Shown here: piece after piece, positions 2,674 to 55,651 of the stretch
How positions within the stretch are numbered: the stretch's first letter is position 1
How the letters are laid out: each line of letters starts with the position of its first letter
Assembly: GCA_963722415.1 (NCBI GenBank)
Contig: CAVRNI010000026.1
Coordinates: 58,362 to 122,361, forward strand
From: Ilumatobacteraceae bacterium
GTDB lineage: Bacteria; Actinomycetota; Acidimicrobiia; Acidimicrobiales; Ilumatobacteraceae
Length of the DNA stretch: 64,000 bases
Reading direction: 5' to 3'
Program-made: the position numbers and the translations under genes
Notes under the pieces: generated by a model
What the model saw: the letters and a program-made list of their open reading frames with translations, nothing else
Database searches by the model: none
Told to the model about the DNA's origin: nothing

Positions 2674-2741
2674 CGCCGTGTGTCACACCGTGTGTCGGGA
2701 CGGCCCGCGGTCATCCCGACTCGGGTCGGACCGAGCCGCGG

Positions 2742-3477
2742 TCACGCGGGCGGTGCGGCGTCGCGCACGTGCACGACATCGCCGACGTCGAGGCGGTGGC
2801 TGAGCCCACACGTGTCGACGACGACCAAGCGGCCGTCGCCGTCGATGTCGACCGCCCGCCCCTCGATCCGTCCACTGGGCACCTGCACGTCGACGCGCCG
2901 TCCGAGGGTTGCCAGCGCCGCCCGGTACCTCGGCCCGATGTCGTCGGGAAGGGCGTCGAACGCGGTGAGCAGCGCGGCGAGCAGGTCGAGTGGCGTCGGC
3001 CCACCCGAAGCTGCGTCGTGCAACGACGCCGCGCCTTCGGGCGCCCAGCCGACGTTCAAGCCCAGCCCCACCACGATCGAACCGTCGGCCGCCTGCTGGG
3101 CGAGGATCCCGGCCAGCTTGCGATCGTCGAGCGAGGAGGTCGTTCGGCCACTTCAGCACCGCCTCGACCCCTGCCGCCACGAGGCAGGCGTCGATCGCGG
3201 CCAGTCCGACCCGCTGCGTCAGTGCCGACGGCGGGGACGGCACCGTCCGGAACAGGATCGACACCAACAGGTTGACGCCCGGCGGCGCGTTCCAGCGCCG
3301 GTCGAGACGACCACGTCCCGCCGTTTGATGATCGGCGACGAGCACACTGCGATCGGGCGCGCCGGTTGCGGCGGCCGCGAGCAGGTCGTCGTTCGTGCTG
3401 CCGGTCTCCGATACATGGCTGACGTTCCATCCGGCGGGCCACGGCTGGTCGCGCGGCGTGCGGTCGGGAACAGTCAT
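2742..3477 (-). CDS. birA: Biotin-[acetyl-CoA-carboxylase] ligase, group I (no N-terminal HTH), one frame switch near 3132
   Basis: MTVPDRTPRDQPWPAGWNVSHVSETGSTNDDLL...HQTAGRGRLDRRWNAPPGVNLLVSIL...VLKWPNDLL, then (frame of ORF 2742..3074) DDRKLAGILAQQAADGSIVVGLGLNVGW...GRIEGRAVDIDGDGRLVV. Deleting one C in ctcctcgCtcgacgat restores a single frame. Confidence 0.85.
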
Positions 3478-5266
3478 GGTGCGTACATTGTCAGGCGTGC
3501 TGCAGAGGATCCTGATCGCCAACCGCGGCGAGATCGCCGTGCGCGTCATCCGCGCCGCTCGCGAGCTCGGCATCGAGACCGTTGCGGTCTACTCCGAGCT
3601 CGATCGGGACGCGCTGCACGTCCGGCTCGCCGACCAGGCGTTCGCGCTCGGCGGGCAGACCGCGGCCGAGAGCTACCTGAACACCGACGCCATCCTCGGC
3701 GCGATCCGTGACAGTGGCGCCGACGGCGTCCACCCCGGTTACGGCTTCTTCTCCGAGAACGCCGACTTCGCCACCGCGATCACCGACATGGGCGTGGCGT
3801 TCATCGGCCCGCCGCCATCGGCCATCACCGAGATGGGCGACAAGGTCTCGAGCCGGCTCGCCGCCCAACGCGGCGGCGCTCCGATCGTGCCCGGCACCAC
3901 CGAGTTCGCGAAGGGTCCGGACGACATCGTGGCGTTCGGCGAGGCCAACGGCTGGCCGATCGCGATCAAGGCTGCCTTCGGCGGTGGTGGCCGAGGGATG
4001 AAGGTCGTGGAATCGGCGGCCGAGGTGGCCGACGCGATGGCGAGCGCGCAGCGCGAGGCGAAGAGCTTCTTCGGTCGCGACGAGGTGTACGTCGAGCGGT
4101 ACCTCACGTGGCCACGCCACGTCGAGGTGCAGATCGTCGGCGATCAACACGGCGACGTGGTGTGGGTCTCGACACGCGACTGCTCGGCGCAACGACGCCA
4201 CCAGAAGTTGATCGAGGAGGCGCCCGCACCCGGACTCCCCGACGGGGTCGAGGCGGCGATGGGCGACGCCGCGGTCAAGGCCGCCAAGGCGGTCGGCTAC
4301 TACAACGCCGGGACCGTCGAGTTCATCTACCAGGACGGTGACTTCTTCTTCCTCGAGATGAACACCCGCCTCCAGGTCGAGCACCCCGTCACCGAGGTGA
4401 TCACCGGTCTCGACCTCGTCGAGTGGCAGATCCGGGTCGCCTCCGGCGAGCCCCTGCCGCTCACCCAGGAGGAGGTGCTCGCGCTCCGGCGCGGCCACGG
4501 CATCGAGATCCGCATCAACGCCGAGGACCCGGCTGGCGGACGCTTCCTCCCGTCGCCCGGCCGGATCACCAAGCTCGTCGCACCCGACGGGTTCGGTGTC
4601 CGTTTCGACAGCGGCTACGAGTCGGGCGACGAGATCAGCCAGTTCTACGACAACCTCGTCGGCAAGGTCATCGTCTGGGGCAAGGACCGCGACACCGCGA
4701 TCGCGCGTGCTGTCCGGGCGCTGGAGGAGATGACGGTCGAAGGTGTCGCCACGACGATCCCGGCCGATCTGGCGATCCTGCGCCACCCCGACTTCGTCGC
4801 CGTCGAGCACTCGACGCGGTGGGTCGAGCAGAACCTCGACCTGTCCGGCCTGGCGCCGGCCGGGCCTTCGTCGCCGGAGGCAGGCGCCGACGACGAGCCG
4901 ACCGAACCGCTGGTCCAGCGGCGAACGACGGTCGAGGTCAACGGCAAACGCTTCGATGTGACGGTGTGGGTGCCCGAAGGGGCGACCACCGCCACGCCGG
5001 CCAAGGCCAAGCCGAGGCGATCCGCCGCAGGCAGCGGCGCAGCCGGCGGCGGGAGCGGCGATGTGACCGTCCCGATGCAGGGAACGATCGTCAAGGTGCT
5101 CGTGGAGGTCGGTCAGGCGGTCGAGGTCGGCCAGGGCATCGTCGTGCTCGAGGCGATGAAGATGGAGAACCAGATCAACGCCGAGAAGGCCGGCACGATC
5201 AAGGCCATCAAGGTCGTGCCCGGCGACACCGTGGGCGGCGGCGACGTTGTCGCCGTCATCGAGTGA
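3476..5266 (+). CDS. accA: Acetyl/propionyl-CoA carboxylase alpha subunit (biotin carboxylase + BCCP domain)
   Basis: ORF 3395..5266: RILIANRGEIAVRVIRAARELGIETVAVYSE, ATP-grasp core, C-terminal biotinyl motif VVLEAMKMENQI. Start is ATG 3476 or GTG 3496; the earlier ORF start is unlikely. Confidence 0.93.
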   Translation: MVRTLSGVLQRILIANRGEIAVRVIRAARELGIETVAVYSELDRDALHVRLADQAFALGGQTAAESYLNTDAILGAIRDSGADGVHPGYGFFSENADFATAITDMGVAFIGPPPSAITEMGDKVSSRLAAQRGGAPIVPGTTEFAKGPDDIVAFGEANGWPIAIKAAFGGGGRGMKVVESAAEVADAMASAQREAKSFFGRDEVYVERYLTWPRHVEVQIVGDQHGDVVWVSTRDCSAQRRHQKLIEEAPAPGLPDGVEAAMGDAAVKAAKAVGYYNAGTVEFIYQDGDFFFLEMNTRLQVEHPVTEVITGLDLVEWQIRVASGEPLPLTQEEVLALRRGHGIEIRINAEDPAGGRFLPSPGRITKLVAPDGFGVRFDSGYESGDEISQFYDNLVGKVIVWGKDRDTAIARAVRALEEMTVEGVATTIPADLAILRHPDFVAVEHSTRWVEQNLDLSGLAPAGPSSPEAGADDEPTEPLVQRRTTVEVNGKRFDVTVWVPEGATTATPAKAKPRRSAAGSGAAGGGSGDVTVPMQGTIVKVLVEVGQAVEVGQGIVVLEAMKMENQINAEKAGTIKAIKVVPGDTVGGGDVVAVIE

Positions 5267-6813
5267 CCCTCCCCCTCCACCCGATCGAGATCAGGGGCGC
5301 CGGGCTGTCGATCGCCGATGTCGTCGCCGTCGCCCGGCACGACACCCCGGTCAGCTTGGCCGACTCGGCCCGTGAGGAGATGGTCCGGTCAGCCACCCTC
5401 GTCGACGGCTTCATCGCCGGCGACCGTCCGGTCTACGGCGTCACCACCGGGTTCGGCTCGCTCGCCGACACCGTGATCCCGCACGAGCGCACCAGCGAGT
5501 TGCAGGTGGCCCTCATCCGCTCCCATGCGGCCGGCATGGGCGAGCCGGTCGAGCGCGAGGTCGTGCGGGCGATGCTCCTGTTGCGCGCCAGGAGCCTCGC
5601 GATGGGCCGGTCGGGCGCCCGCCCGTTGCTGGTCGACCAGCAGTTGGCGCTGCTCAACGCCGGCCTGACGCCCCTCGTGCCCGAGCACGGCTCGCTCGGG
5701 GCCAGCGGCGACCTGGCGCCACTCGCCCACTGCGCGCTGGCGATGATCGGCGAGGGCCATGTCACGATCGACGGGAACATCACGTCGTCCGACGAGGCGC
5801 TCGCCGGCGCCGGCATCGAGCCGGTGGTGCTCCGCGCCAAGGAGGGGCTGGCCCTCATCAACGGCACCGACGGCATCCTGGGGATGCTCTCGCTGGCGAT
5901 CACCGACCTCGAGGTCCTCGCCCGCCTCGCCGACGTGACGGCCGCGATGAGCGTCGAGGCGTTGCTCGGCACCGACCGCGCGTTCGCCGCCGATCTGCAG
6001 GCGTTGCGGCCGCAGGTCGGGCAGGCCGTCAGCGCGGCCAACCTGCGCCGCCTGCTCGCCGGTTCGGCGATCGTGGCCAGCCACCGCGAGGGCGATCCCC
6101 GGGTGCAGGACGCCTACTCCTTGCGGTGCACGCCGCAGGTGCACGGTGCCGCGCTCGACACCATCGCCCACGCCCGCACGATCGCCGAGCGCGAGCTCGA
6201 CGCCGCGATCGACAACCCGATGATCCTGCCCGACGGGCGGGTCGAGTCGTGTGGCAACTTCCATGGCGCACCGCTGGGCTTCGTGTGCGACTTCCTCGCG
6301 ATCGCGGTGTCGGAGCTGTCGGCGATCAGCGAACGCCGTACCGACCGGCTCCTCGACGCCACCCGATCGCACGGCCTGCCGCCGTTCCTCGCGCCCGATC
6401 CTGGCGTCAACTCGGGGATGATGATCGCCCACTACACGCAGGCCGCGATGGCGACGGAGAACAAGCGCCTCGCGGTGCCGGCGAGTGTCGACTCGCTGCC
6501 GACGAGCGCGATGCAGGAGGACCACGTGTCGATGGCGTGGTCGGCCGCCCGCAAGCTGCGCCGCAGCGTCGACAACCTGCGCCGGGTGCTGGCCGTCGAG
6601 TTCGTGTGCGCGGCGCGTGGGATCGATCTGCGGGCGCCCCTCGAACCGGCCGCCGGCACAGGCGCCGCCGTCGGCGCCCTGCGCGGGCGGGTCGACGGCG
6701 CCGGGCCCGATCGGTGGCTGTCGCCCGAGCTCGGTGCGGCCGAGGATCTGATGCGCTCTGGCGCCGTGCTGGACGCGGTGGAGTCAGCGATCGGAACGCT
6801 CGATGTGGTGTAG
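5263..6813 (+). CDS. hutH: Histidine ammonia-lyase
   Basis: The last 516 codons of ORF 4423..6813 start at GTG 5263, which overlaps the accA TGA (GTGA). Contains YGVTTGFGSLAD and the MIO-forming GSLGASGDLAPLAH motif. Confidence 0.93.
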   Translation: MTLPLHPIEIRGAGLSIADVVAVARHDTPVSLADSAREEMVRSATLVDGFIAGDRPVYGVTTGFGSLADTVIPHERTSELQVALIRSHAAGMGEPVEREVVRAMLLLRARSLAMGRSGARPLLVDQQLALLNAGLTPLVPEHGSLGASGDLAPLAHCALAMIGEGHVTIDGNITSSDEALAGAGIEPVVLRAKEGLALINGTDGILGMLSLAITDLEVLARLADVTAAMSVEALLGTDRAFAADLQALRPQVGQAVSAANLRRLLAGSAIVASHREGDPRVQDAYSLRCTPQVHGAALDTIAHARTIAERELDAAIDNPMILPDGRVESCGNFHGAPLGFVCDFLAIAVSELSAISERRTDRLLDATRSHGLPPFLAPDPGVNSGMMIAHYTQAAMATENKRLAVPASVDSLPTSAMQEDHVSMAWSAARKLRRSVDNLRRVLAVEFVCAARGIDLRAPLEPAAGTGAAVGALRGRVDGAGPDRWLSPELGAAEDLMRSGAVLDAVESAIGTLDVV

Positions 6814-6840: not shown

Positions 6841-8502
<1,662 letters not shown>

Positions 8503-8504
8503 AG

Positions 8505-9080
8505 GTGGCCGTTCGGGAGATCCTCACCGTGGGGCATCCGGTGCTGCGCGAGCGGGCGCGGGAGGTGTCGGCCGACGAGCTCGCCGGCCACGAGATGCAG
8601 ACGTTGATCGACGACCTCATCGACACCATGCACGCCGCCAACGGCGCCGGGATCGCGGCTCCGCAGATCGGTGTGTCGGTGCGCATCGCCACGATCGAGG
8701 TGAACCACAACCCGCGCTACCCGTACAAGCCGCCGATCCCGCTCACGGTCGTGGTCAATCCGGTGATCGAACCGATCGACGACGAGCAGGTCGAGATCAA
8801 CGAGGGCTGCCTGTCGGTTCCGAACCTGCGGGGCAACGTGATGCGCGCGGTCAACATCCGCGTCCGCTCGCTCGACCGCGACGGCGGCGAACACGACGAG
8901 ATCAAGCGCGGTCTCACCGCCGGCACGTATCAACACGAGTGCGATCACCTCGACGGGATGCTCTTCCTCGATCGCGTCCACGACACCCGGTCGCTGACGA
9001 CGTGGGAGCAGTTCGAGCTCCATCACCGCGACGCGTTCGTGAGCCGGATCACCGAGTTCGTCCGCCGGGTCGGTTCGTGA
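8505..9080 (+). CDS. def: Peptide-deformylase-family protein embedded in the hut operon
   Basis: GTG 8505 lies 2 nt after the hutU stop. All three PDF motifs are present: GAGIAAPQIG, EGCLSVP, QHECDHLDG. The stop overlaps the hutF GTG (GTGA). Confidence 0.85.
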   Translation: MAVREILTVGHPVLRERAREVSADELAGHEMQTLIDDLIDTMHAANGAGIAAPQIGVSVRIATIEVNHNPRYPYKPPIPLTVVVNPVIEPIDDEQVEINEGCLSVPNLRGNVMRAVNIRVRSLDRDGGEHDEIKRGLTAGTYQHECDHLDGMLFLDRVHDTRSLTTWEQFELHHRDAFVSRITEFVRRVGS

Positions 9081-10412
9081 CGACGAGCTACTGGTGCGAG
9101 CTGGCGTGGCTCGGCGGCGACACCGTCACCGCCGGTGTTTCGATCGACGTCGATGGTGATCGCATCACGGCCGTGCGCCCAGCCGTCACCGAACCGCCTC
9201 CGACCGCGACCCGCCTCGCGGGCCTCACCCTGCCGGGACTCGCCAACGCCCACAGTCACGCCTTCCACCGGCTGTTGCGGGGTGCCACCCAGATCGGCGT
9301 CGGCTCGTTCTGGACGTGGCGCGAGCAGATGTACGCGGCGGCCGAGCACTTGACGCCGGAGTCGTACCACCGGCTCGCGACGGCGGTGTTCGGTGAGATG
9401 GCGCTCGCCGGCATCACGTGCGTCGGCGAGTTCCACTACGTCCACCATGACGCCGGCGGGGTGCCGTACGACGATGCAGAACGCGATGGGGGCGGCGCTG
9501 ATCGCCGCCGCCGCGACGGCCGGCATTCGCATCACGTTGCTCGACACCTGTTACCTGCACGGCGGCATCGGGGTCGAGCTGGATCCGGTTCAACGGCGCT
9601 TCGGCGACGGCGATGCGCTCGGGTGGGCGACGCGCGCCTCGGACCTCGACCGGTTGACATCGGCGACGGCGCGCGTCGGCGCCGCGATCCACTCCGTGCG
9701 GGCGGTCGACCCAGCGTCGGCCGAGGTCGTCGGGGCGTGGGCCGCGGAGCGCGACGTTCCGTTGCACTGCCACGTTTCGGAGCAGCCGGCCGAGAACGAA
9801 CAGTGCGTCGCCGCGTACGGCGTCACACCCGTCGGCCTCCTCGACCGGCACGGATTGCTCGGCGAGCGCTTCAGCGCCGTCCACGCGACCCATCTCACCG
9901 ACGCCGACGTCGTCACGCTGGGTGCCAGCCGATCGACGGTGTGCCTGTGCCCGACGACCGAGCGCGACCTCGCCGACGGCATCGGCCCGGCGCGGGCACT
10001 GCGCGACGCTGGATCGGCGCTCGCCCTCGGCTCCGACTCACATGCCGTGATCGACCTGTTCGAGGAGTCGCGTGCGGTGGAGCACCACGAGAGGTTGGCG
10101 AGCCTCGTGCGCGGCAACCACGACGCGCCGAGCCTGCTGCGGGCGGCCACTGCCAACGGATACACCAGCCTCGGCTGGCCGGAGGGCGGGCGGCTGGAGG
10201 TGGGTGCGCTGGCCGACCTGTGCACGGTGCGCCTCGATTCGGTGCGGTTGGCCGGCGCCCGCCGCGAGCAGTTGCTCGAGTCGGTGGTGTTCGCGGCGTC
10301 GGCGGCCGACGTCGACCACGTCGTCGTCGGCGGAGACGTGATCGTCCGTGACGGCACTCACGTACGTCTCGATGTGGCAGCCGACTTGGCGCGCGCCGCG
10401 GAGGCCGTGTGA
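9077..10412 (+). CDS. hutF: Formimidoylglutamate deiminase, one frame switch near 9476
   Basis: N-terminal frame (ORF 8939..10351): [13 protein letters not shown]...[18 protein letters not shown]...[17 protein letters not shown]. It continues in ORF 9393..10412: [25 protein letters not shown]...[12 protein letters not shown]...[10 protein letters not shown]. Confidence 0.85.
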
Positions 10413-11596
10413 CGACCACCGTGCTCGACCACATCGGCGTCCTGGTGACGAACGACGCGGCCAACGGTGGGGATGGGGATGCGGGTGCGCTCGGCGCGCT
10501 CACCGACGCCCACGTCGTGTTCGACGGCCCGTCGATCATCGGCGTCGGCACCGGCCGCGCGCCAGCCGCCGACCAGCGGATCGACGCCGGCGGGCGGTGC
10601 GTGCTGCCCGGCTTCGTCGACAGCCACACGCATCTCGTGTTCGCCGGCGACCGTTCCTCGGAGTTCGCATCGCGCATGGCCGGCCGCCCGTACGAGGCCG
10701 GGGGCATCAACGTGACGGTCGGCGCCACCCGGGCAGCGTCCGACGCGACGTTGCGGTCCCTCGCCGCTGCACGGCGCGACGAGGGACGCCGCGCCGGCAT
10801 CACGACGACGGAGATCAAGTCCGGTTACGGGCTCACGGCGATCGACGAGGCCAGGTGCCTCCGGATCGCCGGCGAGCTCACGGGCGAGACGACGTTCCTG
10901 GGTGCGCACGTCGTGCCGCCCGAGTACACCGATCGTGCCGACGCGTACGTCGAGCACCTCTGCGACGAGATGCTCCCCGCGTGCGCGCCCCACGCCCGCT
11001 GGATCGATGCGTTCTGCGAGACCGGCGCGTTCGACGCCGATCAATGCCGCGCCGTGCTCGACGCCGGGCGGGCCGCCGGGCTCGGGCTCCGACTCCACGC
11101 CAACCAGCTCGGGCCCGGTCCGGGAGTCGCCCTTGCCGTCGAGACGGGCTGCGCCTCCGCCGATCACTGCACGTACCTCACCGACGCCGACGTCGAGGCG
11201 CTGGCGGGCGGATCCACCGTGGCGACGTTCCTTCCGGCGACCGACTTCTCGACACGCCAGCCGTACCCGGACGCCCGTCGCGTCATCGACGCCGGAGCCC
11301 AGGTGGCGATCGCGACCAACTGCAACCCGGGCTCGAGCTACACGACGTCGATGTCGTTCTGCATCGCGCTCGCCGTGCGCGACATGCACATGACGCCCGA
11401 GGAGGCCGTGGCGGCGGCAACCGTCGGCGGGGCGAGAGCGCTCCGGCGCGACGACGTCGGGCGGATCGCGCCCGGCTGCCGCGCCGATCTCGTGATCCTC
11501 GACGCGCCGAGCTACACCCACCTCGTCTACCGGCCAGGCGTGCCGTTGATCGCCGTCACGATCGAGGCCGGCGAGACCGTCTGGCAGTCGCCGTAG
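10409..11596 (+). CDS. hutI: Imidazolonepropionase
   Basis: 395 aa: [22 protein letters not shown]...EIKSGYGL...LRLHANQL...ASADHC...ATNCNPGSS. The GTG start overlaps the hutF stop. Confidence 0.93.
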
Positions 11597-12434: not shown

Positions 12435-12497
12435 GGGCGCGCGTCGCCCACATTGATCAGACTCGCGGACGACCCGGAACTGATCGGGACCGCGCGA

Positions 12498-13876
12498 CTA
12501 CTCGGCGGCGTCGACGAGCGCCTCGGCGAGCGCCGGGTGCACCAGCAGGCTCTCGACGATGTCGCTGACCTTCAGGTTGGCCGTCACCGCGAGGGCGATC
12601 ACCGAGATCAGCTCCGCGGCGTGGCGTCCGACGATCGACCCGCCGAGCACGACCCCGGTCGCCGGGTCGGAGATGATCTTCACGAAGCCCCGCGAATCGT
12701 TGTTGATCAGGGCCTTCGGAGTGGCGGAGAACGGCACCTTCGTGACGCGGATCTTGCGGCCGACGGCGAACGCCTCGGCTTCGGCGAGGCCGACGTCGGC
12801 GATCTCGGGCTCGGTGAAGATCGCCGAGGCCGCCTTGTCGTAGTCGAGGTGGCGGTGCTCGCGGGTGTGCAGGCCCATCACGTGCTCGGCCACCTTGCGG
12901 CCCTGCATGGCGGCCACCGACGACAGCGGGAGCTTGCCGCTCACGTCGCCGGCCGCGTAGATGTGGGGCTGGTTGGTGACGCAGTGCTGGTTGATCGGGA
13001 TGTAGCCACCGACGTCGACCTCCACACCGGCGACATCGAGTCCGAGCCCCTCCGTGTTCGGCACCGAGCCGATGGCGAGCACGGCGTGGGTCGACCTGAC
13101 GGTGCGACCGTCGTCGCAACTGATGATGACGTGATCGCCGTGCTCGTCGTCGACGGTCCGCTCGATCGACGTCGCCCGTGCGCCCTTCAGCAGGCGTACG
13201 CCGCGGGCGAGGAAGTCCTCCTCGAGGACGGCCGCGACCTCGGGGTCCTTGCCGGGGAGCACCTGCTGGCGGCTCACGACGAGCGTCACCGCGGCGCCGA
13301 ACGACGAGAACATGTGGACGAACTCGACACCCGTCACGCCCGACCCGACGACGGTCACGCTCTCGGGGAACGTCTTGGGTGGGTAGCAGTCGCGCGTGGT
13401 GAGGATGCGGTCGCCGTCGGGGAAGCACCAGTCGGGCACGCGGGGCTTCGAACCGGTCGACACGAGCGGCGCAGTCGAACCCGAGCTCCTGCGTGCCCTC
13501 GGCGGTCTCGACCGTCAACGTGTTCGGGCCCGTGAACCGCGCGACGCCACGGATCAACTCGACACCCTGACTCTCGAGCAGCGTCGTCGTGGCCTTCTGG
13601 AGGTGCGACTTGATGCCCTCGATGCGGGAGATCAGGCCCTCGACGTCGACCTCCGGATGCGTCGGTTCGAGACCCATGCCGTCGATGCGGCGGGAGAAGC
13701 TCATCGCGCCGCCGGTCGCGATCATCGTCTTCGACGGGATGCAGTCCCACAGGTGCGCGGCGCCACCGATCACGTCCCGTTCGATCATCGTGACCTCGCG
13801 CACCGAGGCGGGCGGCATAGGTGGCGGCGGTGTTGCCTGCCGGTCCACCCCCGACGATGACAAAGCGCATGGTCAC
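12498..13876 (-). CDS. Pyridine-nucleotide-disulfide flavoprotein (LpdA/NAD(P)H-quinone-reductase-like), two frame switches (about 13798 and about 13467)
   Basis: Three frame segments join into one protein. Segment 1 is MRFVIVGGGPAGNTAATYAARLGA. Segment 2 is EVTMIERDVIGGAAHLWDCIPSKTMIA...TQELGFDCA. Segment 3 is LVSTGSKPRVPDW...VTVVGSGVTGVEFVHMF...IYAAGDVSG...FTEPEIADVG. Confidence 0.8.
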
Positions 13877-13885
13877 GCCGACAGG

Positions 13886-15244
13886 CTACGGCGCAGGTTC
13901 GTGGTCGTGTTCCATCGCAGGTGCGTCGGTCACGAACAGCACCGACCGCGAGTTGCCGGCCTCGACGGCCTGCGTCGTCGCCTGGACCAGGTTCGGGCAG
14001 TAGGTCGACGGATAGCTGAGCTGGTCGCGGCGCTCGCCCACCCACTCGAAGTGCATCCCGTCGGACACGAGGAAGTTGCCGCCCCACGCGAAGTTGTGGC
14101 GCCGGAAGATGCGCACGACCTCGCAGTTCATCTGCGGCACGCAACCCTGGCAGTTGCTGACGGTGTTGGTGTCGAGCGCCATCCCCCACGAGTGCCGCGA
14201 CAGGAAGCCGAGCTCTCCGCCGATCCGGTTGAAGCGCGCGTAGTGACAACCGCCGTACGTGTTGGCATTGGTGACGTCGATGGTGCCGGCGAGACCGGCC
14301 GCGGCCACATCGTCGAGGGCCGCCTTGAGGTCGGCGACGATCCGGTTGTGGCAGCGCGCCCGGATCGGGATCTGCGAGCTGAGGAGCTCGCGACCGGCCG
14401 GCAGGTTCGCCGCCTGCCACGCACCCTCCTGGATGATGCTGCCGTCGCCGAGGATCTGGTAGGCGAACTCACCGAGCAACTCCTTGGTGCGGGCGAGTCC
14501 GAGGTTGCCGTCGGGGCTGGGCGGGTCCCAGCTGTGGCGCACCCGGGTCCGGAACCGACTGCTCACGCCGCGGTCGGCGAGCGCCGCGTCGAGCGCGACG
14601 CGCGACGGGAACCCGTAGATCACGACCTGGGTGTTGGAGGTGATCCCCAAGCCACCGGCCGCGGCGGTCGTCATCAACAGCTCGGTGCCGCCGACCTCGT
14701 CCTCCGTGCCGATCCTCGAGATCGTGAGCGTGCGCACGCTTCCATCGGCGGCGACGAGATCGATCAGATCACCCGCCTGGGCGCCCCGGAGGCCGGCCGT
14801 TCGCTCACCCATCACGACCGAGGTCGGTCCGAGCGCGCCCGAGATGGCGCGGCCGCTGACAGCGGCGATCGCCGACGGGTGCAACGCGGTGACCGACATC
14901 GGCAAGCGGAAGCCGGACGGCGCCTGTTGCACGATCGACCCGGCGCGGGTGATGCGCGTCATGCCGATCGTCACGGACCGACCGGCGGTGCCGACACCCC
15001 CGGCGTCGCGTGCCGCGGCGAGTGAGCCGTACAGGTTCGCGGTGTCGAGCTCGCCGACGTCGGAGACGGTGACGATGTCGCCGAGCACCTCGACCGCGGT
15101 CGCCCCCGCGCCCGGCGTCGCCGGGGCATTGATCGACGGCGGCGCGGCGACAGCAACCACCGCGGCGGTGCCCAGGACCGCGGCGATCGAGAGGACCACC
15201 GCCCGGCGTCGGGAGCGGGTGAGGCGGGGTGACGACGACAGCAC
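13886..15244 (-). CDS. Secreted M15-family (VanY/D-Ala-D-Ala carboxypeptidase-like) peptidoglycan peptidase
   Basis: Signal-like N-terminus RRRAVVLSIAAVLGTAAVVAVAAP. The C-terminal domain has LSRHSWGMALD and FAWGGNFLVSDGMHFEW. Confidence 0.7.
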   Translation of the reverse strand: MLSSSPRLTRSRRRAVVLSIAAVLGTAAVVAVAAPPSINAPATPGAGATAVEVLGDIVTVSDVGELDTANLYGSLAAARDAGGVGTAGRSVTIGMTRITRAGSIVQQAPSGFRLPMSVTALHPSAIAAVSGRAISGALGPTSVVMGERTAGLRGAQAGDLIDLVAADGSVRTLTISRIGTEDEVGGTELLMTTAAAGGLGITSNTQVVIYGFPSRVALDAALADRGVSSRFRTRVRHSWDPPSPDGNLGLARTKELLGEFAYQILGDGSIIQEGAWQAANLPAGRELLSSQIPIRARCHNRIVADLKAALDDVAAAGLAGTIDVTNANTYGGCHYARFNRIGGELGFLSRHSWGMALDTNTVSNCQGCVPQMNCEVVRIFRRHNFAWGGNFLVSDGMHFEWVGERRDQLSYPSTYCPNLVQATTQAVEAGNSRSVLFVTDAPAMEHDHEPAP

Positions 15245-15305: not shown

Positions 15306-16901
15306 GTGGACCAGGGAACCGACGCTGGGGCCGGTGCGGCCGAAGTCGAGACGCCAGACGTCGAGACGCCCGAAACCGCGCCGGATGTCGGGCCAGCTGT
15401 CGAGCCCGTGACGGCGTCGAGCAGCGGGCTCAGCACCGAGCGGTCGCGACGCCTGGCACAGGTCGAAAAGCTGCGCGACGCAGGCACTGAGCCGTACCCC
15501 TACCGGTTCGACCGCTCGCACACCCTGCGCGAGATCCGCGACACCTGGGGGTCGCTCGAACCGGGCACCGAGACCGCCGACGAGGTCGACGTCGCCGGCC
15601 GCGTGATGCTGCTGCGCGACTCCGGCAAGCTCGTGTTCGCGACGATGCGCGACCGCAGCGGCGAGATCCAGCTCTTCGTGTCGAAGGCCGAGATGGGCGA
15701 CGGAGCGTTCGACGACGTCAAGGCGCTCGACCTCGGCGACTGGGTCGGCGTGCACGGCACGGTGATGACCACGCGCAAGGGCGAGCTCTCGATCAAGGTC
15801 GACCGCTTGGAGCTGCTCGCCAAGTCGTTGCGGCCGTTGCCGGACAAGTGGCACGGGCTGACCGACATCGACGCCCGCTACCGCCAGCGCTACGCCGACC
15901 TGATCGTCAACGAGCAGGCCCGCCGCGCGTTCGAGATCCGCCACGAGTTGATCGCCAGCTTCCGCCGCACGCTCGCCGCCGAAGGCTTCACCGAGGTCGA
16001 AACGCCGATCCTCCATGTCGAAGCCGGCGGCGCGCACGCGAGGCCCTTCGTCACCCACCATCACACGCTCGACATGGAGCTGTACCTGCGGATCGCGCTC
16101 GAGCTGCATCTCAAGCGCCTGATCGTGGGCGGCATGGAGCGGGTGTACGAGATGGGTCGCATCTTCCGCAACGAGGGCATCTCACCCCGTCACAACCCCG
16201 AGTTCACGATGATGGAGCTGTATCAGGCGTTTGCCGACGTCACCGACGTGATGACGATCACGGAGCGGCTCATCGTCCAGGCGGCGCGCGACGCGCTCGG
16301 CACGACCGTCGTGACGATCCGCGGCGTCGAGGTCGACCTCGCCGAACCGTGGCCACGGCGACGGATGATCGATCTGGTCAGCGAGTCGATCGGTACCGAC
16401 GTGCACCCGTCACAGCCGGTCGAGCACCTGCGGGCGCTCGCCGATCGCCTCGACGCGCACTACGAACCCGCCTGGGGTCAAGGCCGGCTGATCGAGGCGT
16501 TGTTCGAGGCCACGGTCGAGGCGGACCTCGTGGGGCCGGTCTTCGTCACCGGTCACCCGATCGAGATCTCACCGCTGGCGAGGGTCGATCGCGACGACCC
16601 GTTCCTCACCGAGCGCTTCGAGCTGTTCGCCAATTCGATGGAGTTGGCCAACGGCTACACCGAGCTCAACGACCCGGTCGAGCAACGGCAGCGCTTCGAG
16701 GAGGAGCAGGCGGCCAGGGAAGCCGGTGACGTCGAACGGGGATCAGTCGACGAGGACTACCTACGCGCCCTCGAGTACGGCATGCCTCCGACCGGCGGGC
16801 TCGGCGTGGGCATCGATCGTGTCGCCCGCCTGCTGGCCGGCGTCGACACGATCAAGGAGGTCATCCTGTTCCCCACACTCCGACCAGAGGTGTTCGAATG
16901 A
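15306..16901 (+). CDS. lysS: Lysine-tRNA ligase (class II)
   Basis: Part of ORF 14631..16901 from in-frame GTG 15306: [13 protein letters not shown]...[23 protein letters not shown]...[23 protein letters not shown]...[14 protein letters not shown]. Upstream ORF text is antisense to the M15 gene. Confidence 0.92.
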
Positions 16902-16911
16902 GGGTCCTCGA

Positions 16912-17859
16912 ATGACACGCATGGCATGGGGCGCCGGGCTCACCACGGAGGCCGCCGACGGCACGACGCTCGACGCCTGGTTCCGGTGGCTCGGCTGGGG
17001 CGAGTTCGGGAGCGACGAGATGGTCGCCGACCATCCCGACATCGACACGCAGCTCGGCTTACGTGATCGGGTCGACGAGCTGCGCCGGGTCAAGGTGCGT
17101 CCGATCCGCCTGACGGTCGACGTCGACGAGGCACCCGCCTCGGCCGCCGACGTCTACCTCCGTCTCCATCTGCTGTCACACCGCCTCGCCGCGCCGCGCA
17201 CGTTGAACCTCGACGGCGCGTTCGGACTGCTCTCGAACGTGGCGTGGACGAACCTCGGTCCGGTCGCCGTCGCCGATCTCGACGACGTCCGCCTCCGCGT
17301 CCGCCTCGACGGCGGATGGCTCGAGGTCCACGGCCTCGACAAGTTCCCCCGCATGACCGACTACGTGGTGCCGAGCGGCGTGCGCATCGCCGATGCCGAC
17401 CGGGTCCGGCTCGGCGCCCACTTGGCGGACGGGACGGTCGTGATGCACGAGGGCTTCGTCAACTTCAACGGTGGCACGCTCGGCACGTCGATGGTCGAGG
17501 GTCGCATCTCACAGGGTGTCGTCGTCGGTGACGGCTCCGACGTGGGCGGCGGCGCCTCGATCATGGGCACGCTCTCGGGTGGTGGGACGGAACAGGTCAC
17601 CATCGGCGAACGGTGCCTGCTCGGTGCGAACTCCGGCATCGGCATCAGCCTCGGTGACGACTGCGTCGTCGAGGCCGGGCTCTACGTCACCGCCGGCACG
17701 CTCGTGAAGCTGCCCGACGGGAATGTCACCAAGGGCCGCGAGATCAGCGGCATCTCGAACATGATGTTCATCCGCCACAGCCAGACCGGGGCGGTCGAGG
17801 CCCGTCAGCGCAGCGGATCGTGGGGCGGCCTGAACCAGGCCCTCCACGTGAACGACTGA
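16912..17859 (+). CDS. dapD: 2,3,4,5-tetrahydropyridine-2,6-dicarboxylate N-succinyltransferase (actinobacterial type)
   Basis: Starts at ATG 16912: [12 protein letters not shown]...[12 protein letters not shown]...[47 protein letters not shown] (hexapeptide repeats). Confidence 0.85.
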
Positions 17860-43569: not shown

Positions 43570-45636
43570 TCAGTGGGGAGGAACGCTGCCTCCTCGTCCG
43601 GCGTGAGGTTCCGAGCGGCGATCGCGCGACAACCGATCACGAAGGCCGGCACGGTCGACTCGGAACCGCATCGTGGACGATTCGCCCCCCACCGCGATTT
43701 GCTGCGCAGCGGGATCGATCGACACCGACGTGGCCGGATCATTGGCTGACATCGTCAGCGTGCCGATCAGACGCAGGTGCGGAACATCCCAGACGTCGAC
43801 GCCGCCGTCGGATGTCGCCGCGACGAGCAGCTCACCCGTGGCGGACAGGTCAACCGACCGGATCGAGCTGTGCATCACGGGCGGCGACAAGACCTTCCAC
43901 ACCTTGGGATCGCAACCGTCGCCGCCGTCGCCCAACAGGACTCTGGGGTATATCCGGATTTCGCCATCGGACGTGCCGATCGCGACCGTGCCGTCGGCGG
44001 CTACGGCGATGTCGTTGACGCTTCGTCCGAGCTCGATCGACGAGAACTCGCCGGTCGAACCCGGTGGCGCGGACAGCAGCGTGCCGCCCTGGTCGCCGAC
44101 GACCAGATGACCCTCGGCCGAGAGCGCGATCGCGGTCACTCGCCGACCGGTGGGGATCTCCGCCGTGCTCTCGCGGCCATCGTGGACCATCAGGATCTCA
44201 CCCGCGTTGATCCCCGCCGCCAAGTTGTCCGTGTCGACCATCGACAGCGCTGTGAGCTCTCCGGCGCCGGAGGATGGGTGGGTGGCGACCGGCGTCCGCG
44301 ACGCGGCGTCGTACACGACGACTTCGTCGGGCCATCCGCTCACACCGCGGCCGATCGCCGCCAACTCCTCTCCGTCGACGCCGTACGACACGCGGTCGAA
44401 GTCGCCAGTGTGTTCCGACGGCTGCAGCTGGTGGGCGGTGCCGTCGGCGTCGACGATTCGCAGCGTGCCGGACGTGATGACGGCGATCTGACCGTCACCG
44501 TTCGGCCGCACCGCCACGTCGCCGATGCCGCGGTCGCCGTCATCACGTGCGATCGGTTCCGCCCAGCGATTCGGCTGGTCGAGATCCCAGGCGACGAGCC
44601 CGTCGCCGGCGACGGACACGAAAGTGGTGTCCGTCGGACAGATCACGCTGCGGACCGTGTCCGTGTGCGAGGCGAATTCCACCGGTTCGACCAACTGTCC
44701 GCGTTGTCGGCTCCACCGCCGGACGAGATGATCGCGGCCCGCGGTCACGACGCCCGAACCGTCGGGCGACACGCACATCGTCACGACACGGCCTTCGAGC
44801 ACGTCGGAAGAACCACCGGTCCGTTCGTCGACCGTCCCGACGAGTGTGATCGCCGTGGGATTCTCGTCAGCCAGATCCCAGGAGCGGATCGTGAGGTCGT
44901 CGCCCGTGGAGAGCAGTTCGCTGGTGCCCGGCACGAACGCGACCGCGCGGACCTTGCTCGTGTGTGCCGTCAGGGTCTGGGTCGGCTCCAGCGTGGCGCG
45001 CTCCCAAACTCCGATTAGGCAGTGGTTCGTTCCGGCGACCAACCAGCGCCGCTCGTCGTCGACCGCGATTGATCGAACCTTCCGATCGGCCGCCTCGATG
45101 ACGCATTGAGACGACCCTGGGCCGTCTGGCACCGCGAACATGTGCTCGATGGCCGGACTCGACACGTTGGAAACGTCGATCACCGCGACCATGCCGTCCC
45201 ACGTGCCGACGATCAAACGGTCGCCGTCGAAAAGTGCGACGGACACCGGGCTGTCCGTGTCAAGGCGAACGCGACGCGACGTGAGCGACGGATCGGATGT
45301 GTCGATGACGTCGATCCAGCCGTCGCTGCCGACGAACCCGTGCCCGTCGGGTTCGACGTTGCCCCCTCCGACCGCGATCACCGATGTGCTCTCCTGCGCC
45401 GCGATCGCGAGGATGCTGTGTCCGACGTTCGATTTCGTGCTCGGTTCTGCATCGCCCGGGTCCCAGACGTAGAGCTCCCCGAACCCGTCGCCGATCACGA
45501 TCCGGCCGTTGCCCAGCTGGACGGCAGCTTCAAACCCGACGTTGCGGGCGGTGGCATCGATGCGCCGAGCGATGTCTGGATCGTGTTCCGCGGTGACGAG
45601 CATCTCGACCGCCCCGAGATCCGTCTCGTCGATCAT
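43570..45636 (-). CDS. WD40/beta-propeller repeat protein (688 aa), partner of the upstream STAND NTPase
   Basis: Many blades of the type ...VAIGTSDGEIRIYP, LLVAATSDGGVDVWDV, VVTAGRDHLVRRW, LLSTGDDLTIRSWDL, IVIGDGFGELYVWDP. No signal peptide. The ATG overlaps the STAND gene's TGA (ATGA at 45633-45636). Confidence 0.85.
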   Translation of the reverse strand: MIDETDLGAVEMLVTAEHDPDIARRIDATARNVGFEAAVQLGNGRIVIGDGFGELYVWDPGDAEPSTKSNVGHSILAIAAQESTSVIAVGGGNVEPDGHGFVGSDGWIDVIDTSDPSLTSRRVRLDTDSPVSVALFDGDRLIVGTWDGMVAVIDVSNVSSPAIEHMFAVPDGPGSSQCVIEAADRKVRSIAVDDERRWLVAGTNHCLIGVWERATLEPTQTLTAHTSKVRAVAFVPGTSELLSTGDDLTIRSWDLADENPTAITLVGTVDERTGGSSDVLEGRVVTMCVSPDGSGVVTAGRDHLVRRWSRQRGQLVEPVEFASHTDTVRSVICPTDTTFVSVAGDGLVAWDLDQPNRWAEPIARDDGDRGIGDVAVRPNGDGQIAVITSGTLRIVDADGTAHQLQPSEHTGDFDRVSYGVDGEELAAIGRGVSGWPDEVVVYDAASRTPVATHPSSGAGELTALSMVDTDNLAAGINAGEILMVHDGRESTAEIPTGRRVTAIALSAEGHLVVGDQGGTLLSAPPGSTGEFSSIELGRSVNDIAVAADGTVAIGTSDGEIRIYPRVLLGDGGDGCDPKVWKVLSPPVMHSSIRSVDLSATGELLVAATSDGGVDVWDVPHLRLIGTLTMSANDPATSVSIDPAAQQIAVGGESSTMRFRVDRAGLRDRLSRDRRSEPHAGRGGSVPPH

Positions 45637-47978
45637 GTCTGCCGCGGGACCAGGAGCGCCTGGAGTCCCAAACCACCGCTGTAGGCAGCTGCCGACGTCT
45701 GAAGTTGGGTTGCGACCCGCCTATCCGTCTCCGCCTCGGCAGTGCGTTGGGACGCCCTCGCGTCGTTCCGGGCGTGCCACGCGTAGACGCCGAGACCGGT
45801 CGTCAGGACGGCCACCACGACCGCCGCGACGAGTACGACGCGTTCCCAGAGACGCTTGCGGTCCGCCTTGGCGCGACTCCTCGCGATGTATGCCACGAGG
45901 TCCTGCTCGACGACGAAGTCCGAACCGTGCGCCTGCTCGAGCCAGCGTTCGGCGGCTGCGAGGTCGCGGCCGGTGAGTGGCTCCGGGCCGACCCGGCTCT
46001 CCCAGGTCCGACGTTGCATCTCGACGCCACGGTGCAGTTGGACCCACTCCCGGAACGTCGGCCAGCCAGCGATGATCGCGTCGTGGCTCAGGTCGGCGAC
46101 CTGGACGTGGCGCGACGTGCCGCCCTCAACAATCGTCTGGTCGTCGACGGTGATGATGCGTTGGTTCTCGTGACTCAGGATGTCGAAGACCTCCCGGAAG
46201 CCGGCCGGGTCGGCCGCGGCATCGACGAGCTTCGTGACCGGCACCTGGCGACGGGTGTAAAGCTCGCCGTCGCCGAAGTGCACGAGTCGCATGAGGATCG
46301 CACGCGCGATACCCATGCCATCGTCGGGGCGTCGCTGCTTGACGATCTTGAGAGCGTCGTCGGCCTGCCGGCTGATCGCCTCCCGCACGCCGAACTCGCC
46401 AGACGACCACTCCGTTTCTGAGAGCGACAGATACCACCACGGCTGCCGACCCCAGAGCTTGCGGAGCGCCTCCTGCAGGAACGGCATGAGTCCCGGCTGC
46501 CCTTCGGTCTCGCTCGCCAACCGCACCACCAGCGAGTCGGCGATGACGACGCCGAGTTGTCCTGCCGGCTCGCGGATCGCTTGCTCCAGCGCACCTCCGG
46601 TAAGCGGCGTGATCGGCACCAGATCGAGCTCGACAAGCGTCCAGACCGGACTGACCATCAGCTGTCCGTAGAAGTCGGCGCGGACCGTCACGATGATGTG
46701 CAGCTCCGGATCGAGCCGCCGCTGCTCGACGATGGCATTGAGGAAGCGAGTGCCGACGTCCAGTACCGGTTCGTCCGATCCGTCTGTGAGCGGGGGTGCA
46801 ACCCCGAACGCCTGCTCCAGTTGGTCGACGACCAGCACCCTTGCGTGATTGGGGCTGGCTGCCCGATCGAGTCGTTCGAGGACTGGCCCGAGTTCGTCGC
46901 TCGGGCGCACGATCTCGACCGAGCTCTGGGGCCGCCCGTCGAACCCCGCTTCTCGGATTCGAGGGAGCACGCCCGCGAGCACGAGCGACGACTTGCCCGA
47001 ACCCGACGGACCGATCACCGCCGCTATCCGTCGGCGTCGCAGTTGTTCCATGACGAGCTCGATTTCGCGATCCCGGCCGACGAAGGGGTAGCGCTCGTCT
47101 CCGCGGTACGGCCGCATGCCGGGGTAAGGACACGCTGGGGGACGGCTGAGTCGTGGAGGGGCAACGTCGAATGCGCGACAGATCGTCTGCAGCGACTCGT
47201 ACCAGAGCTCACGGTTGAACATGTCAACCCGAACCGGTACGTCGTACTGCTGTGGGATCTCGAACGGATTCGTCGGGTCGCCCGGATTGTCGAGCACCAG
47301 CGGGAGAGACTTGCTGATCTGGCGCGTCTTTTCGAACTCGTCGAGGTAGCGCCCCGCCTCGTGGGCGAGATCGTTCAGGTACGCCCTCGACACCACGACG
47401 ATCACGCGATCGGCCCAGTCGATCGCGTTCTGGAGCGCCTTGAACGCAGGTTCGCCGGAGTCGACTGCTCCGGACAGGGAGGCGACGTCCTTGGCGTCGA
47501 CGTTGGCTTGCCGCAACGCGGGAATGAGGTAGCCCGTCACGAACTCGCGGTCGGCCTCCGATTCGAGGACGAACGCGCGCTTGATCATCCGGTCGACCGC
47601 TTCGATGACCTTGGTCGGATCGTCGTCGTTGCGGAGATCGATCAGGTGATCTGCGGCCGGGAGGTGCTCGACGTCTCCTCGTTGGACCACGACGAGGATC
47701 CCACTGATCGCCGCCTCGTATTCGGTGTACCAACTCTGTCCGTACCATTCGTCGACTGTCGCCACCGTGACCCGGGCTCTCGCCGAGCTCCGCACGATCT
47801 CGTCGATGAGGATCTGACCCGGCACGAAGTCCTTCGTGTCGAGGAGCGCCGAGTAGCCAGCCTGTTCCAACGCCGGTTTCAAGACGTTGCGGACCCACGT
47901 CGCAGTTGGTTCACGGTGCCGGTAGCTCAGGAAGACGTCTCGGTCAGCGGGAGTCACGATCCACCTCACTGACGACAC
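45633..47978 (-). CDS. Tandem-TIR - STAND (nSTAND/NACHT-like) P-loop NTPase with C-terminal transmembrane helix
   Basis: - TIR 1: RDVFLSYRHREPTATWVRNVLKPALEQAGYSALLDTKDFVPGQ...GQSWYTEYEAAIS.
- A second, degenerate TIR-like unit: KRAFVLESEADREFVTGYLIPALRQ...RVIVVVSRAYLND.
- STAND entry motif: CPYPGMRPYRGDERYPFVGRDREIE.
- Walker A: VIGPSGSGKSS. Walker B: VLVVDQLEQAF.
- TM helix: VVLVAAVVVAVLTTGLGVYAW (nt 45777-45839).
The likely true start is GTG 47957, preceded by gaggtgg. Confidence 0.85.
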   Translation of the reverse strand: MSSVRWIVTPADRDVFLSYRHREPTATWVRNVLKPALEQAGYSALLDTKDFVPGQILIDEIVRSSARARVTVATVDEWYGQSWYTEYEAAISGILVVVQRGDVEHLPAADHLIDLRNDDDPTKVIEAVDRMIKRAFVLESEADREFVTGYLIPALRQANVDAKDVASLSGAVDSGEPAFKALQNAIDWADRVIVVVSRAYLNDLAHEAGRYLDEFEKTRQISKSLPLVLDNPGDPTNPFEIPQQYDVPVRVDMFNRELWYESLQTICRAFDVAPPRLSRPPACPYPGMRPYRGDERYPFVGRDREIELVMEQLRRRRIAAVIGPSGSGKSSLVLAGVLPRIREAGFDGRPQSSVEIVRPSDELGPVLERLDRAASPNHARVLVVDQLEQAFGVAPPLTDGSDEPVLDVGTRFLNAIVEQRRLDPELHIIVTVRADFYGQLMVSPVWTLVELDLVPITPLTGGALEQAIREPAGQLGVVIADSLVVRLASETEGQPGLMPFLQEALRKLWGRQPWWYLSLSETEWSSGEFGVREAISRQADDALKIVKQRRPDDGMGIARAILMRLVHFGDGELYTRRQVPVTKLVDAAADPAGFREVFDILSHENQRIITVDDQTIVEGGTSRHVQVADLSHDAIIAGWPTFREWVQLHRGVEMQRRTWESRVGPEPLTGRDLAAAERWLEQAHGSDFVVEQDLVAYIARSRAKADRKRLWERVVLVAAVVVAVLTTGLGVYAWHARNDARASQRTAEAETDRRVATQLQTSAAAYSGGLGLQALLVPRQT

Positions 47979-52564: not shown

Positions 52565-52723
52565 CTCCGGTCACACTAGGCACCGCCGTGAGCGCGTCAA
52601 TTGTGCCTGCAAGGATTTGACACCACCGGAGGAGCGACCGAGACTGTGCGGAGGGAACGCCGTCCGCACATCCAGCAGATATCAGTCGATCACCACGACC
52701 GGGCGCCGGAGGGAGTCAGCACC

Positions 52724-53218
52724 ATGACGGGCTACGTGACCAAGTTCGGGTCACTCGACGACTACACCAAGGGCGGCGTCGACGTCATCGACGGCGAGGC
52801 CAAGCACTACGCGTTCTCCAACATGTTCGAGGTCGCGTCGCACGCCAAGCCGTGGGAGAAGATCGCCGTCGGCAAGAACATGGAGTACGTGCTCGAGGTG
52901 ATCCGCGCCGAGGGGACCAGCGAGTGGCGCACCTGCGCCCACGACGAGTTCCCGCTTTGCATGGACGGGGAGATCACCGTCGAACTGGTCAAGCTCGACA
53001 CGCCGCTCGCGCCGGAGGGCAAGAACGGCTCGATCGCCGTCGGCGGCGATCCCGTCGGCAAGCCGATGGGACGCATCGTGCTGCGCAAGGGTCACATGGC
53101 GCTGCTCCCCGCCAACGCCGCGTACCGGTTCTCCTCACCGTCGCCCGCGGTGATCCTCCTCCAGACGATCCACGGCGACGACACCATCGAACGCTGGGCC
53201 GAGATCTGCCTCAGCTGA
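52724..53218 (+). CDS. Two-component hydroquinone-type ring-cleavage dioxygenase, small subunit (HapC/HqdA-like; tentative)
   Basis: 164 aa from ATG 52724: MTGYVTKFGSLDDYTKGG...MEYVLEVIRAEGTSEWRTCAHDEFPLCMDGEITVEL. Size, pairing with the next gene and pathway context support the call. Confidence 0.5.
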   Translation: MTGYVTKFGSLDDYTKGGVDVIDGEAKHYAFSNMFEVASHAKPWEKIAVGKNMEYVLEVIRAEGTSEWRTCAHDEFPLCMDGEITVELVKLDTPLAPEGKNGSIAVGGDPVGKPMGRIVLRKGHMALLPANAAYRFSSPSPAVILLQTIHGDDTIERWAEICLS

Positions 53219-53267
53219 ACCGCACATCAGGAAACAACGCCAGACGGCACACGAACAGGATGCACCC

Positions 53268-54249: not shown

Positions 54250-54253
54250 CCAG

Positions 54254-55120: not shown

Positions 55121-55166
55121 CTGGCAACCACTGACCAGTGAGACCACATCGAGAGAGGGGACCCCG

Positions 55167-55628: not shown

Positions 55629-55651
55629 TCGTTACGGTCTGAAGTCTCTGC

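Follow-up and report, generated by a model that had tools for sequence, protein, structure and literature searches.

Which enzyme removes the formyl group from N-formyl-L-glutamate when a hut operon contains hutF and a gene of the peptide deformylase (PDF) family occupies the place of hutG? This question is raised by a 64,000-nucleotide stretch of DNA from an Ilumatobacteraceae bacterium (contig CAVRNI010000026.1; hereafter the window, meaning the whole stretch analysed), in which a def-like gene lies between hutU and hutF. An earlier note on this DNA had proposed that HutG is replaced here non-orthologously by a PDF paralogue. Our comparative analysis supports the proposal: the conserved adjacency to hutF, the varied operon layouts, the PDF-HutF fusions, the signature residues and the lack of a recurrent rival hydrolase suggest that the gene probably encodes a neofunctionalised PDF, which would act as an N-formyl-L-glutamate deformylase (EC 3.5.1.68) in place of an FGase-type HutG. 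The window has a G+C content of ~70%; the close protein relatives of its genes come from metagenome-assembled genomes named Ilumatobacteraceae or Acidimicrobiia, and soil and rhizosphere metagenomes contain DNA near-identical to it. The genes in question are as follows.

~3497-5266, + strand: biotin carboxylase/BCCP gene; its stop overlaps the hutH start by GTGA (5263-5266)
5263-6813, + strand: hutH, histidine ammonia-lyase, step 1 (TIGR01225, 662 bits, cut-off 539)
6841-8502, + strand: hutU, urocanate hydratase, step 2 (TIGR01228, 913 bits; three urocanase Pfam domains)
8505-9080, + strand: PDF-family gene, 191 aa, proposed N-formyl-L-glutamate deformylase, step 5 (PF01327, E 2e-46; structure model; hut context)
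9077-10412, + strand: hutF, formimidoylglutamate deiminase, step 4, product N-formyl-L-glutamate (NF006681, 196 + 418 bits in two pieces)
10409-11596, + strand: hutI, imidazolonepropionase, step 3 (TIGR01224, 364 bits, cut-off 298)

All four hut enzymes of the five-step pathway (HutH, HutU, HutI and HutF) were assigned by NCBIfam equivalog models, and the NCBIfam and Pfam models agree with the tight row of hutH, hutU, def-like gene, hutF and hutI described in the earlier note. The def-like open reading frame (ORF) was found where that note had placed it; it translates without stops into 191 aa, and the PF01327 (Pep_deformylase) match spans residues 3-161 of the protein. The protein also scores above the curated NCBIfam cut-offs for PDFs (NF001159, 163 vs 125 bits; TIGR00079, 119 vs 104 bits). 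The close packing reported before, a 2-nt gap and two GTGA overlaps, can be read directly from the DNA: TGA AG GTG at the hutU/def junction, and overlaps at 9077-9080 (def/hutF) and 10409-10412 (hutF/hutI). The def-like gene probably shares a transcript with hutU, hutF and hutI, and its translation is probably coupled to theirs. Since its G+C content at third codon positions (0.92) is like that of its neighbours (0.89-0.94), it is no recent import. At the other end of the row, the biotin carboxylase (3497-5266, +) has a C-terminal biotinyl domain and overlaps hutH by GTGA as if it were co-transcribed with the hut operon; among the related loci, only that of the closest relative, L002, has it next to hutH. 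On the opposite strand, immediately upstream of the carboxylase gene, is a gene for a BirA-like biotin ligase (2683-3573, -).

The earlier note had suggested a gene-neighbourhood survey as a check, and in this survey def adjoined hutF almost throughout. The sample of close relatives, here called subclade A, held one genome per species (GTDB) and 80 loci, with def 66-96% identical to the window def; neighbours were scored by tblastn with the window Hut proteins, and only loci with enough flank were counted. Of the 72 informative loci, 68 had hutF ≤3.5 kb downstream of def and two more had it overlapping def, giving 70 of 72. hutU was upstream of def in 61/63 loci, and hutI followed def-hutF in 55/60. 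The def-hutF adjacency was kept despite the inversion or displacement of hutH in many of these loci. The def-like protein is ~80% identical across the family, which makes it more conserved than HutF and HutI. Additional genes were seen within the row: a PhyH-family gene, which is Fe/2-oxoglutarate dioxygenase-like, separates hutU from def in 25 of the 80 relatives (e.g. L005, L011 and L020), and an aldo-keto reductase gene separates def from hutF in eight (including L010, L011, L020 and L035). Genes for formate dehydrogenase, formate-tetrahydrofolate ligase and FolD flank the hut-def cluster in two subclade A genomes. In the P0093 context and in L001 (1398-3994), the formate genes beside hut-def comprise formate dehydrogenase subunits, FdhD, formate-tetrahydrofolate ligase and FolD.

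A second subclade (B) was reached via representatives ~50-56% identical to the window def, and def was linked to hut genes in seven of its eight context loci, in the following layouts.

L082: hutC-hutU-hutF-hutI-def-hutH (hutI fragmented across frames)
L085, L087/L088 and L089: hutU-hutF-hutI-def-hutH
L086: hutU-hutF-hutI-DUF222-def
L083: hutF-hutI-def, with TonB-dependent-receptor genes elsewhere on the same 6.3-Mb contig
L090: hutH-def-hutF-hutI, with an IclR regulator and glutamate dehydrogenase after it

Because of the TonB-dependent-receptor genes on its contig, the L083 host is probably a diderm bacterium. The def gene of subclade B without hut linkage (L084) adjoins a formate dehydrogenase operon and formate-tetrahydrofolate ligase (L084, 1-7725). 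The presence of formate genes beside hut-def, and beside def alone in L084, fits a formate-releasing step. Between the two subclades, identity was ~52-56% for def, 51% for HutF and 41-45% for HutI; the divergence of def is thus in the range of HutF and HutI, a pattern that would follow if def and the operon evolved together. In L090, the gene directly after hutI (13061-15211) encodes a protein of 716 aa whose C-terminal domain is dimethylformamidase-like (DMFA2_C), and the glutamate dehydrogenase gene lies two genes beyond it (16265-17533).

The PDF domain was also found on one chain with HutF. P0155 (659 aa), one of the representatives at 50% identity, consists of a clean PDF domain, a linker of ~25 residues and a full-length HutF (NF006681, 377 bits, cut-off 362), and a search with this protein returned ~17 clusters of 578-736 aa with PF01327 and PF01979 on one chain. 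They include proteins from EukProt transcriptomes, one of them labelled Paraphysomonas, a chrysophyte. Two of the fusions are uninterrupted ORFs on contigs with typically eukaryotic neighbours (EF-hand, ankyrin/leucine-rich-repeat, Oscp1, Na/Ca exchanger and a 1541-aa ABC transporter). Several fusion proteins begin directly at the PDF domain, with no long N-terminal extension, and these are presumably cytosolic, judging from their N-termini. If so, they would meet no formylated nascent chains to act on. In oomycetes (Phytophthora, Pythium, Lagenidium and Globisporangium), HutF is fused instead to an M20 peptidase domain in proteins of ~830-860 aa (P0475, P0487, P0511, P0524, P0530, P0565, P0569 and P0571). 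HutF is therefore joined to a metallohydrolase in two eukaryotic lineages, a pattern that would be expected if the partner performs the next step.

Many representatives that looked like def-HutF or HutU-def fusions (e.g. P0150 and P0134) were rejected, as they are frameshift read-through products with arginine-rich out-of-frame stretches. Unusual PDF relatives were seen among P0164, P0227, P0185, P0189, P0221 and P0236: several carry two PDF domains in tandem (~340-390 aa), one joins TatD to PDF, one has its catalytic Glu replaced (QHVIDH), and one combines degenerate motifs with an ankyrin-repeat fusion.

The fold of the window protein was assessed with AlphaFold2. With an input alignment of 70 sequences that included subclade B and the fusions, the model of the 191-aa protein reached a pLDDT of 95.5 and a pTM of 0.91, whereas an alignment restricted to sequences ≥78% identical gave a pLDDT of 58. 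The best PDB match by Foldseek was the Leptospira PDF (E 1e-20; TM 0.87/0.97; root-mean-square deviation 1.0 Å over 170 columns; 43% identity), and the model also superposes on the Burkholderia, Pseudomonas, Arabidopsis PDF1A and human PDFs. The three motifs that the earlier note had read as intact are present at 8643-8672 (GAGIAAPQIG), 8802-8822 (EGCLSVP) and 8934-8957 (HECDHLDG). Q54, C102, H144, E145 and H148 are invariant in 70 relatives. Considering that the metal ligands, E145 and Q54 are invariant and that the model superposes on PDFs, the protein is predicted to be an active metallo-deformylase resembling the Leptospira interrogans enzyme (LiPDF). The segments of the gene that matter here are the following.

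8643-8672, + strand: motif 1, GAGIAAPQIG, residues 47-56; Gln54 is oxyanion-stabilising, and Ala48 stands for Ile44 of the E. coli PDF (EcPDF)
8709-8741, + strand: CD-loop insertion NPRYPYKPPIP, residues 69-79, with the signature Tyr74-Lys75
8799-8822, + strand: Asn99 and motif 2, EGCLSVP; Cys102 is a metal ligand, and Asn99 stands for the Trp/Tyr of other LiPDF-like PDFs
8907-8957, + strand: RGLTAGT and motif 3, QHECDHLDG; the metal is bound by His144 and His148, and Glu145 acts as catalytic base
8997-9077, + strand: C-terminal extension (TTW..., 11 further protein letters not shown), ≥90% conserved among 77 relatives; two predicted helices in the model, residues 167-173 and 175-189

The hut-linked PDFs were compared with the Leptospira, E. 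coli and M. tuberculosis PDFs and with ~25 LiPDF-like representatives without hut linkage. In all context-verified hut-linked PDFs the CD loop reads RYP-Y-K-P, whereas the others have RYP[DEG]xx. Before QHExDH, the hut-linked PDFs have G-[LI]-[ST]-A-G-T, the others G-[FY]-x-A-x-V, and E. coli G-L-L-A-I-C. The residue before EGCLS is Asn in the hut-linked PDFs and Trp or Tyr in the others, and the residue after the RG of motif 2 is polar in the former and hydrophobic in the latter. A conserved [ST]TW and a C-terminal helix also belong to the hut-linked PDFs. Among 150 representatives the YK and AGT elements co-occur almost perfectly, and both are present in every HutF-fused PDF domain. Across operon-linked and fused PDFs, K75 is invariant and Y74, G140 and T141 are ≥90% conserved. 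The window protein has this proposed signature of a HutF-associated PDF subfamily (Y74, K75, G140 and T141), and neither Y74-K75 nor G140-T141 occurs in the Leptospira, E. coli, M. tuberculosis or other LiPDF-like PDFs compared. Ala48 of the GAG motif was rejected as a marker of the clade, being shared by the Burkholderia and other non-hut PDFs.

Several of these positions may bear on the substrate. In known PDFs, the side chain of methionine sits in a hydrophobic S1' pocket, which brings about the closure of the active site, and in LiPDF the enlarged CD loop gates the substrate pocket (PMC3101196). By alignment, the EcPDF S1' residues Ile44, Ile86, Leu125, Ile128 and Cys129 correspond to Ala48, Ile98, Leu137, Gly140 and Thr141 of the window protein, so that three of the five are smaller or polar. 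Given the substitutions to Ala48, Gly140 and Thr141, the S1' pocket is predicted to be larger and more polar. Such a pocket, combined with a lysine in the gating loop, is the direction in which the site might be expected to change if the substrate bears a carboxylate on its side chain and has its alpha-carboxylate free.

A mechanism can be proposed on this basis. HutH, HutU and HutI would convert histidine to N-formimidoyl-L-glutamate, which HutF would deiminate to N-formyl-L-glutamate. The formyl carbonyl would bind the metal-activated water of the PDF-like enzyme as that of a formyl-peptide would, and the Cys/His/His-bound metal together with Glu145 would hydrolyse the formamide bond to yield formate and glutamate. 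The glutamate side chain would be accommodated in the enlarged, more polar S1' pocket (Ala48, Gly140 and Thr141, with Asn99 in place of an aromatic residue). Peptide substrates lack the free carboxylates of N-formylglutamate, and these would be bound by Arg109 together with two residues of the gating CD loop, Lys75 and Tyr74. In several relatives, the released formate could be consumed by the adjoining formate dehydrogenase or formate-tetrahydrofolate ligase. Gene content and order, the fusions, the intact catalytic apparatus and the signature substitutions are observed, and from them we infer the substrate and the roles of K75, Y74, G140, T141 and N99.

A six-frame PDF search found one def only in the window, and no fmt-like ORF was found there. 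Neither the hut genes nor 18 further window ORFs gave a PF05013, PF00491 or PF01546 match in Pfam scans, the rest of the ORFs being judged by eye; the statement of the earlier note that the window has neither an FGase-family nor an arginase-family hutG held to this extent. The 81 related loci (~1.4 Mb, hut neighbourhood only) each contained exactly one def, with no second def and no fmt. No recurrent cluster of FGase-, arginase- or M20-like genes was found in the flanks of the related loci, and the Pfam-annotated contexts contain no such gene. The one exception is an 85-aa arginase-family fragment in L083 (12833-13090, -), 4 kb from hutF-hutI-def and beside DDAH/ADI-like genes, which probably belongs to arginine metabolism and not to a formimidoylglutamase. 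The search of 50%-identity representatives covered the best 150 matches (E < ~1e-30), and the M. tuberculosis-type def (E ~1e-19) lies beyond it. High-GC PDF representatives without the signature had no Acidimicrobiia names among the cluster members looked up. The hut-linked PDF matched Leptospira and proteobacterial PDFs at E 5e-42 and the actinobacterial M. tuberculosis type at E 4.5e-19; this far greater closeness to the former may be a faint, indirect hint that the genome has a second def.

Neighbour-joining trees placed the operon-linked PDFs (subclades A and B and the L083, L084 and L090 variants) in one clade inside the LiPDF-like group; the exact membership of this operon-linked clade received only 32% bootstrap support. 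The fused PDFs formed a separate clade with 100% bootstrap support. The two as sister groups were not recovered in the bootstrapped tree, and for this reason no common ancestry of the signature is claimed. Divergence may have blurred an ancestral signature common to both, or convergence may have produced it twice; each is compatible with a shared function.

The assembly itself requires a comment. Alignment with the relatives L002-L004, in which hutF is intact, shows one extra base within 9476-9479 of the window hutF, which splits the gene over two frames. Several other window genes look broken too: the Lpd-like oxidoreductase gene (12457-13863, -) and the LCP-family gene (820-2673, -) read in more than one frame, and the genes for a maleylacetate-reductase-like iron-containing alcohol dehydrogenase (Fe-ADH) and a thiolase are merged into one 763-aa ORF (56398-58689, +). 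The hutF frameshift is therefore suspected to be, and likely is, an assembly error. This number of broken genes suggests an error-prone assembly, or else many pseudogenes. None of the Logan soil-metagenome contigs, which are fragmentary, extended across 9447-9500 of hutF.

Considering these results together, we weighed what else the gene could be. It might be the ordinary housekeeping PDF, kept in the hut operon by inherited synteny while an unlinked enzyme hydrolyses N-formylglutamate. The intact PDF motifs and fold, the scores above the NCBIfam cut-offs, a nearest solved relative that is a real PDF and the lack of a second def in the window or in the ~1.4 Mb of related hut neighbourhoods would all agree with this. 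However, def stays inside hut operons through several gene orders, the substitutions at substrate-contacting positions are specific to the clade, and in eukaryotes, whose cytosolic proteins carry no formyl group, HutF is covalently joined to a PDF domain of this kind. In addition, the protein is nearer to the Leptospira and proteobacterial PDFs than to the M. tuberculosis type, and an essential gene within an inducible catabolic operon would be unusual. We consider a housekeeping PDF quite improbable. That one protein serves as both the cell's peptide deformylase and its N-formylglutamate deformylase is unlikely: the unchanged catalytic machinery, a conservation above that of HutF and HutI and the single def in the sequence covered can be read in favour of a double role, but the pocket changes expected to favour glutamate remove hydrophobic contacts used for methionine, and the fusions in eukaryotes point to an enzyme dedicated to the pathway. 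It has further been reported that PDFs need peptide backbone beyond P1' for efficient catalysis (PMC3101196), which also counts against a double role. Another small formyl or formimidoyl substrate, such as N-formimidoyl-glutamate or N-formyl-aspartate, or a non-catalytic role, seems most improbable. The PhyH-family dioxygenase gene between hutU and def in 25 relatives hints at side chemistry, but the PDF travels with or is fused to HutF, whose only product is N-formylglutamate, and a non-catalytic role is hard to reconcile with the conservation of all catalytic residues.

We thus return to a dedicated N-formyl-L-glutamate deformylase, for which the chemistry fits, since metal-dependent hydrolysis of an N-formyl amide is required. 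Several points weigh against this assignment. The closest characterised relative, the Leptospira PDF (43% identical over the structural alignment), is a true deformylase of peptides, and the window protein passes the NCBI PDF models. The mapping of residues to the pocket comes from alignment with the E. coli and Arabidopsis PDFs, not from inspected coordinates, and one of the pocket residues, Ala48, is shared with PDFs outside hut operons, the Burkholderia enzyme among them. The fused PDFs are not sister to the operon-linked clade, so that the signature may be convergent or the tree may lack resolution. The sequence covered, the hut neighbourhood, contains no second def that could be the housekeeping gene, and a hutG may lie elsewhere in the genome. 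Finally, hutF is frameshifted in this particular window.

More generally, we consider it fairly likely that an unrecognised branch of the PDF superfamily is a dedicated N-formyl-L-glutamate deformylase. It would be encoded by a separate gene within hut operons of Acidimicrobiia and of one or more diderm lineages, and would form the N-terminal domain of HutF fusions in stramenopile-like protists. In a full-text search of a limited collection, no paper was found that connects PDFs with N-formylglutamate or with the hut pathway. If the proposal is correct, this would be the first PDF-family member with a physiological substrate other than a nascent peptide, and a scaffold known essentially for co-translational processing and as an antibiotic target would have been retooled for a free N-formyl amino acid. 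It would supply the fifth hut enzyme in lineages without FGase-type HutG and close the gap in HutF-containing hut clusters that lack FGase HutG and have so far been without a validated deformylase. A small set of candidate specificity residues would also be open to mutagenesis. Databases name all members "peptide deformylase" and the fusions "formimidoylglutamate deiminase"; such names would inflate the counts of def paralogues and make histidine catabolism look incomplete in abundant soil and freshwater Acidimicrobiia.

Two further regions of the window were noted. The first, at 43570-47870 (-), encodes a 745-aa protein that joins a TIR domain to an nSTAND1 NTPase and, after it, a WD40-repeat protein of 688 aa; this architecture is typical of bacterial STAND/TIR signalling or defence modules. 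At 52646-58689 (+) lies an aromatic-degradation cluster with a gene resembling the large subunit of hydroquinone 1,2-dioxygenase (PnpCD_PnpD_N) and with the maleylacetate-reductase-like Fe-ADH and thiolase; two CoA-transferase-subunit-like genes and a SnoaL-like gene of this cluster were judged by eye.

The proposed enzyme can be set against four known systems. The arginase-family formimidoylglutamase HutG (PF00491) of the four-step pathway likewise ends the hut pathway with glutamate; however, it acts on N-formimidoyl-glutamate, releases formamide and makes HutF unnecessary, whereas here HutF is present and no arginase gene was found in the cluster. The FGase-family HutG (PF05013) of Pseudomonas hut operons shares the proposed reaction (EC 3.5.1.68), the partner hutF and the place in the pathway, but it has no sequence or fold relationship to the window protein, whose only Pfam match is PF01327. 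The M20 candidate, too, is a metallohydrolase that was proposed as the missing HutG on the strength of its hut context, and the oomycete M20-HutF fusions parallel the PDF-HutF proteins; it belongs to a family other than PDF. As this earlier M20 prediction attests, the missing-HutG problem in actinobacteria is already recognised (PMC3223725). The M20 protein of Streptomyces avermitilis was assayed and lacked deformylase activity (PMC3223725, table 3, case 20), a failure indicating that gene context alone is not proof. Judging from their domain architecture, the oomycete fusions may revive M20 as an alternative N-formylglutamate deformylase. The closest of the four is LiPDF (1SV2 and 1Y6H), which, with the "class I type b" PDFs of Burkholderia and Pseudomonas, has the same fold as the window protein and shares its three motifs, including YQHECDHL, and the enlarged CD loop N-x-RYP. 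LiPDF is a peptide deformylase and is not known to be hut-linked. It differs from the window protein in having G-T for Y74-K75, I-V for G140-T141 and W for N99, and its residue after the RG of motif 2 is Y where the hut-linked clade has a polar residue; the conserved extra C-terminal helix is the hut-linked clade's own.

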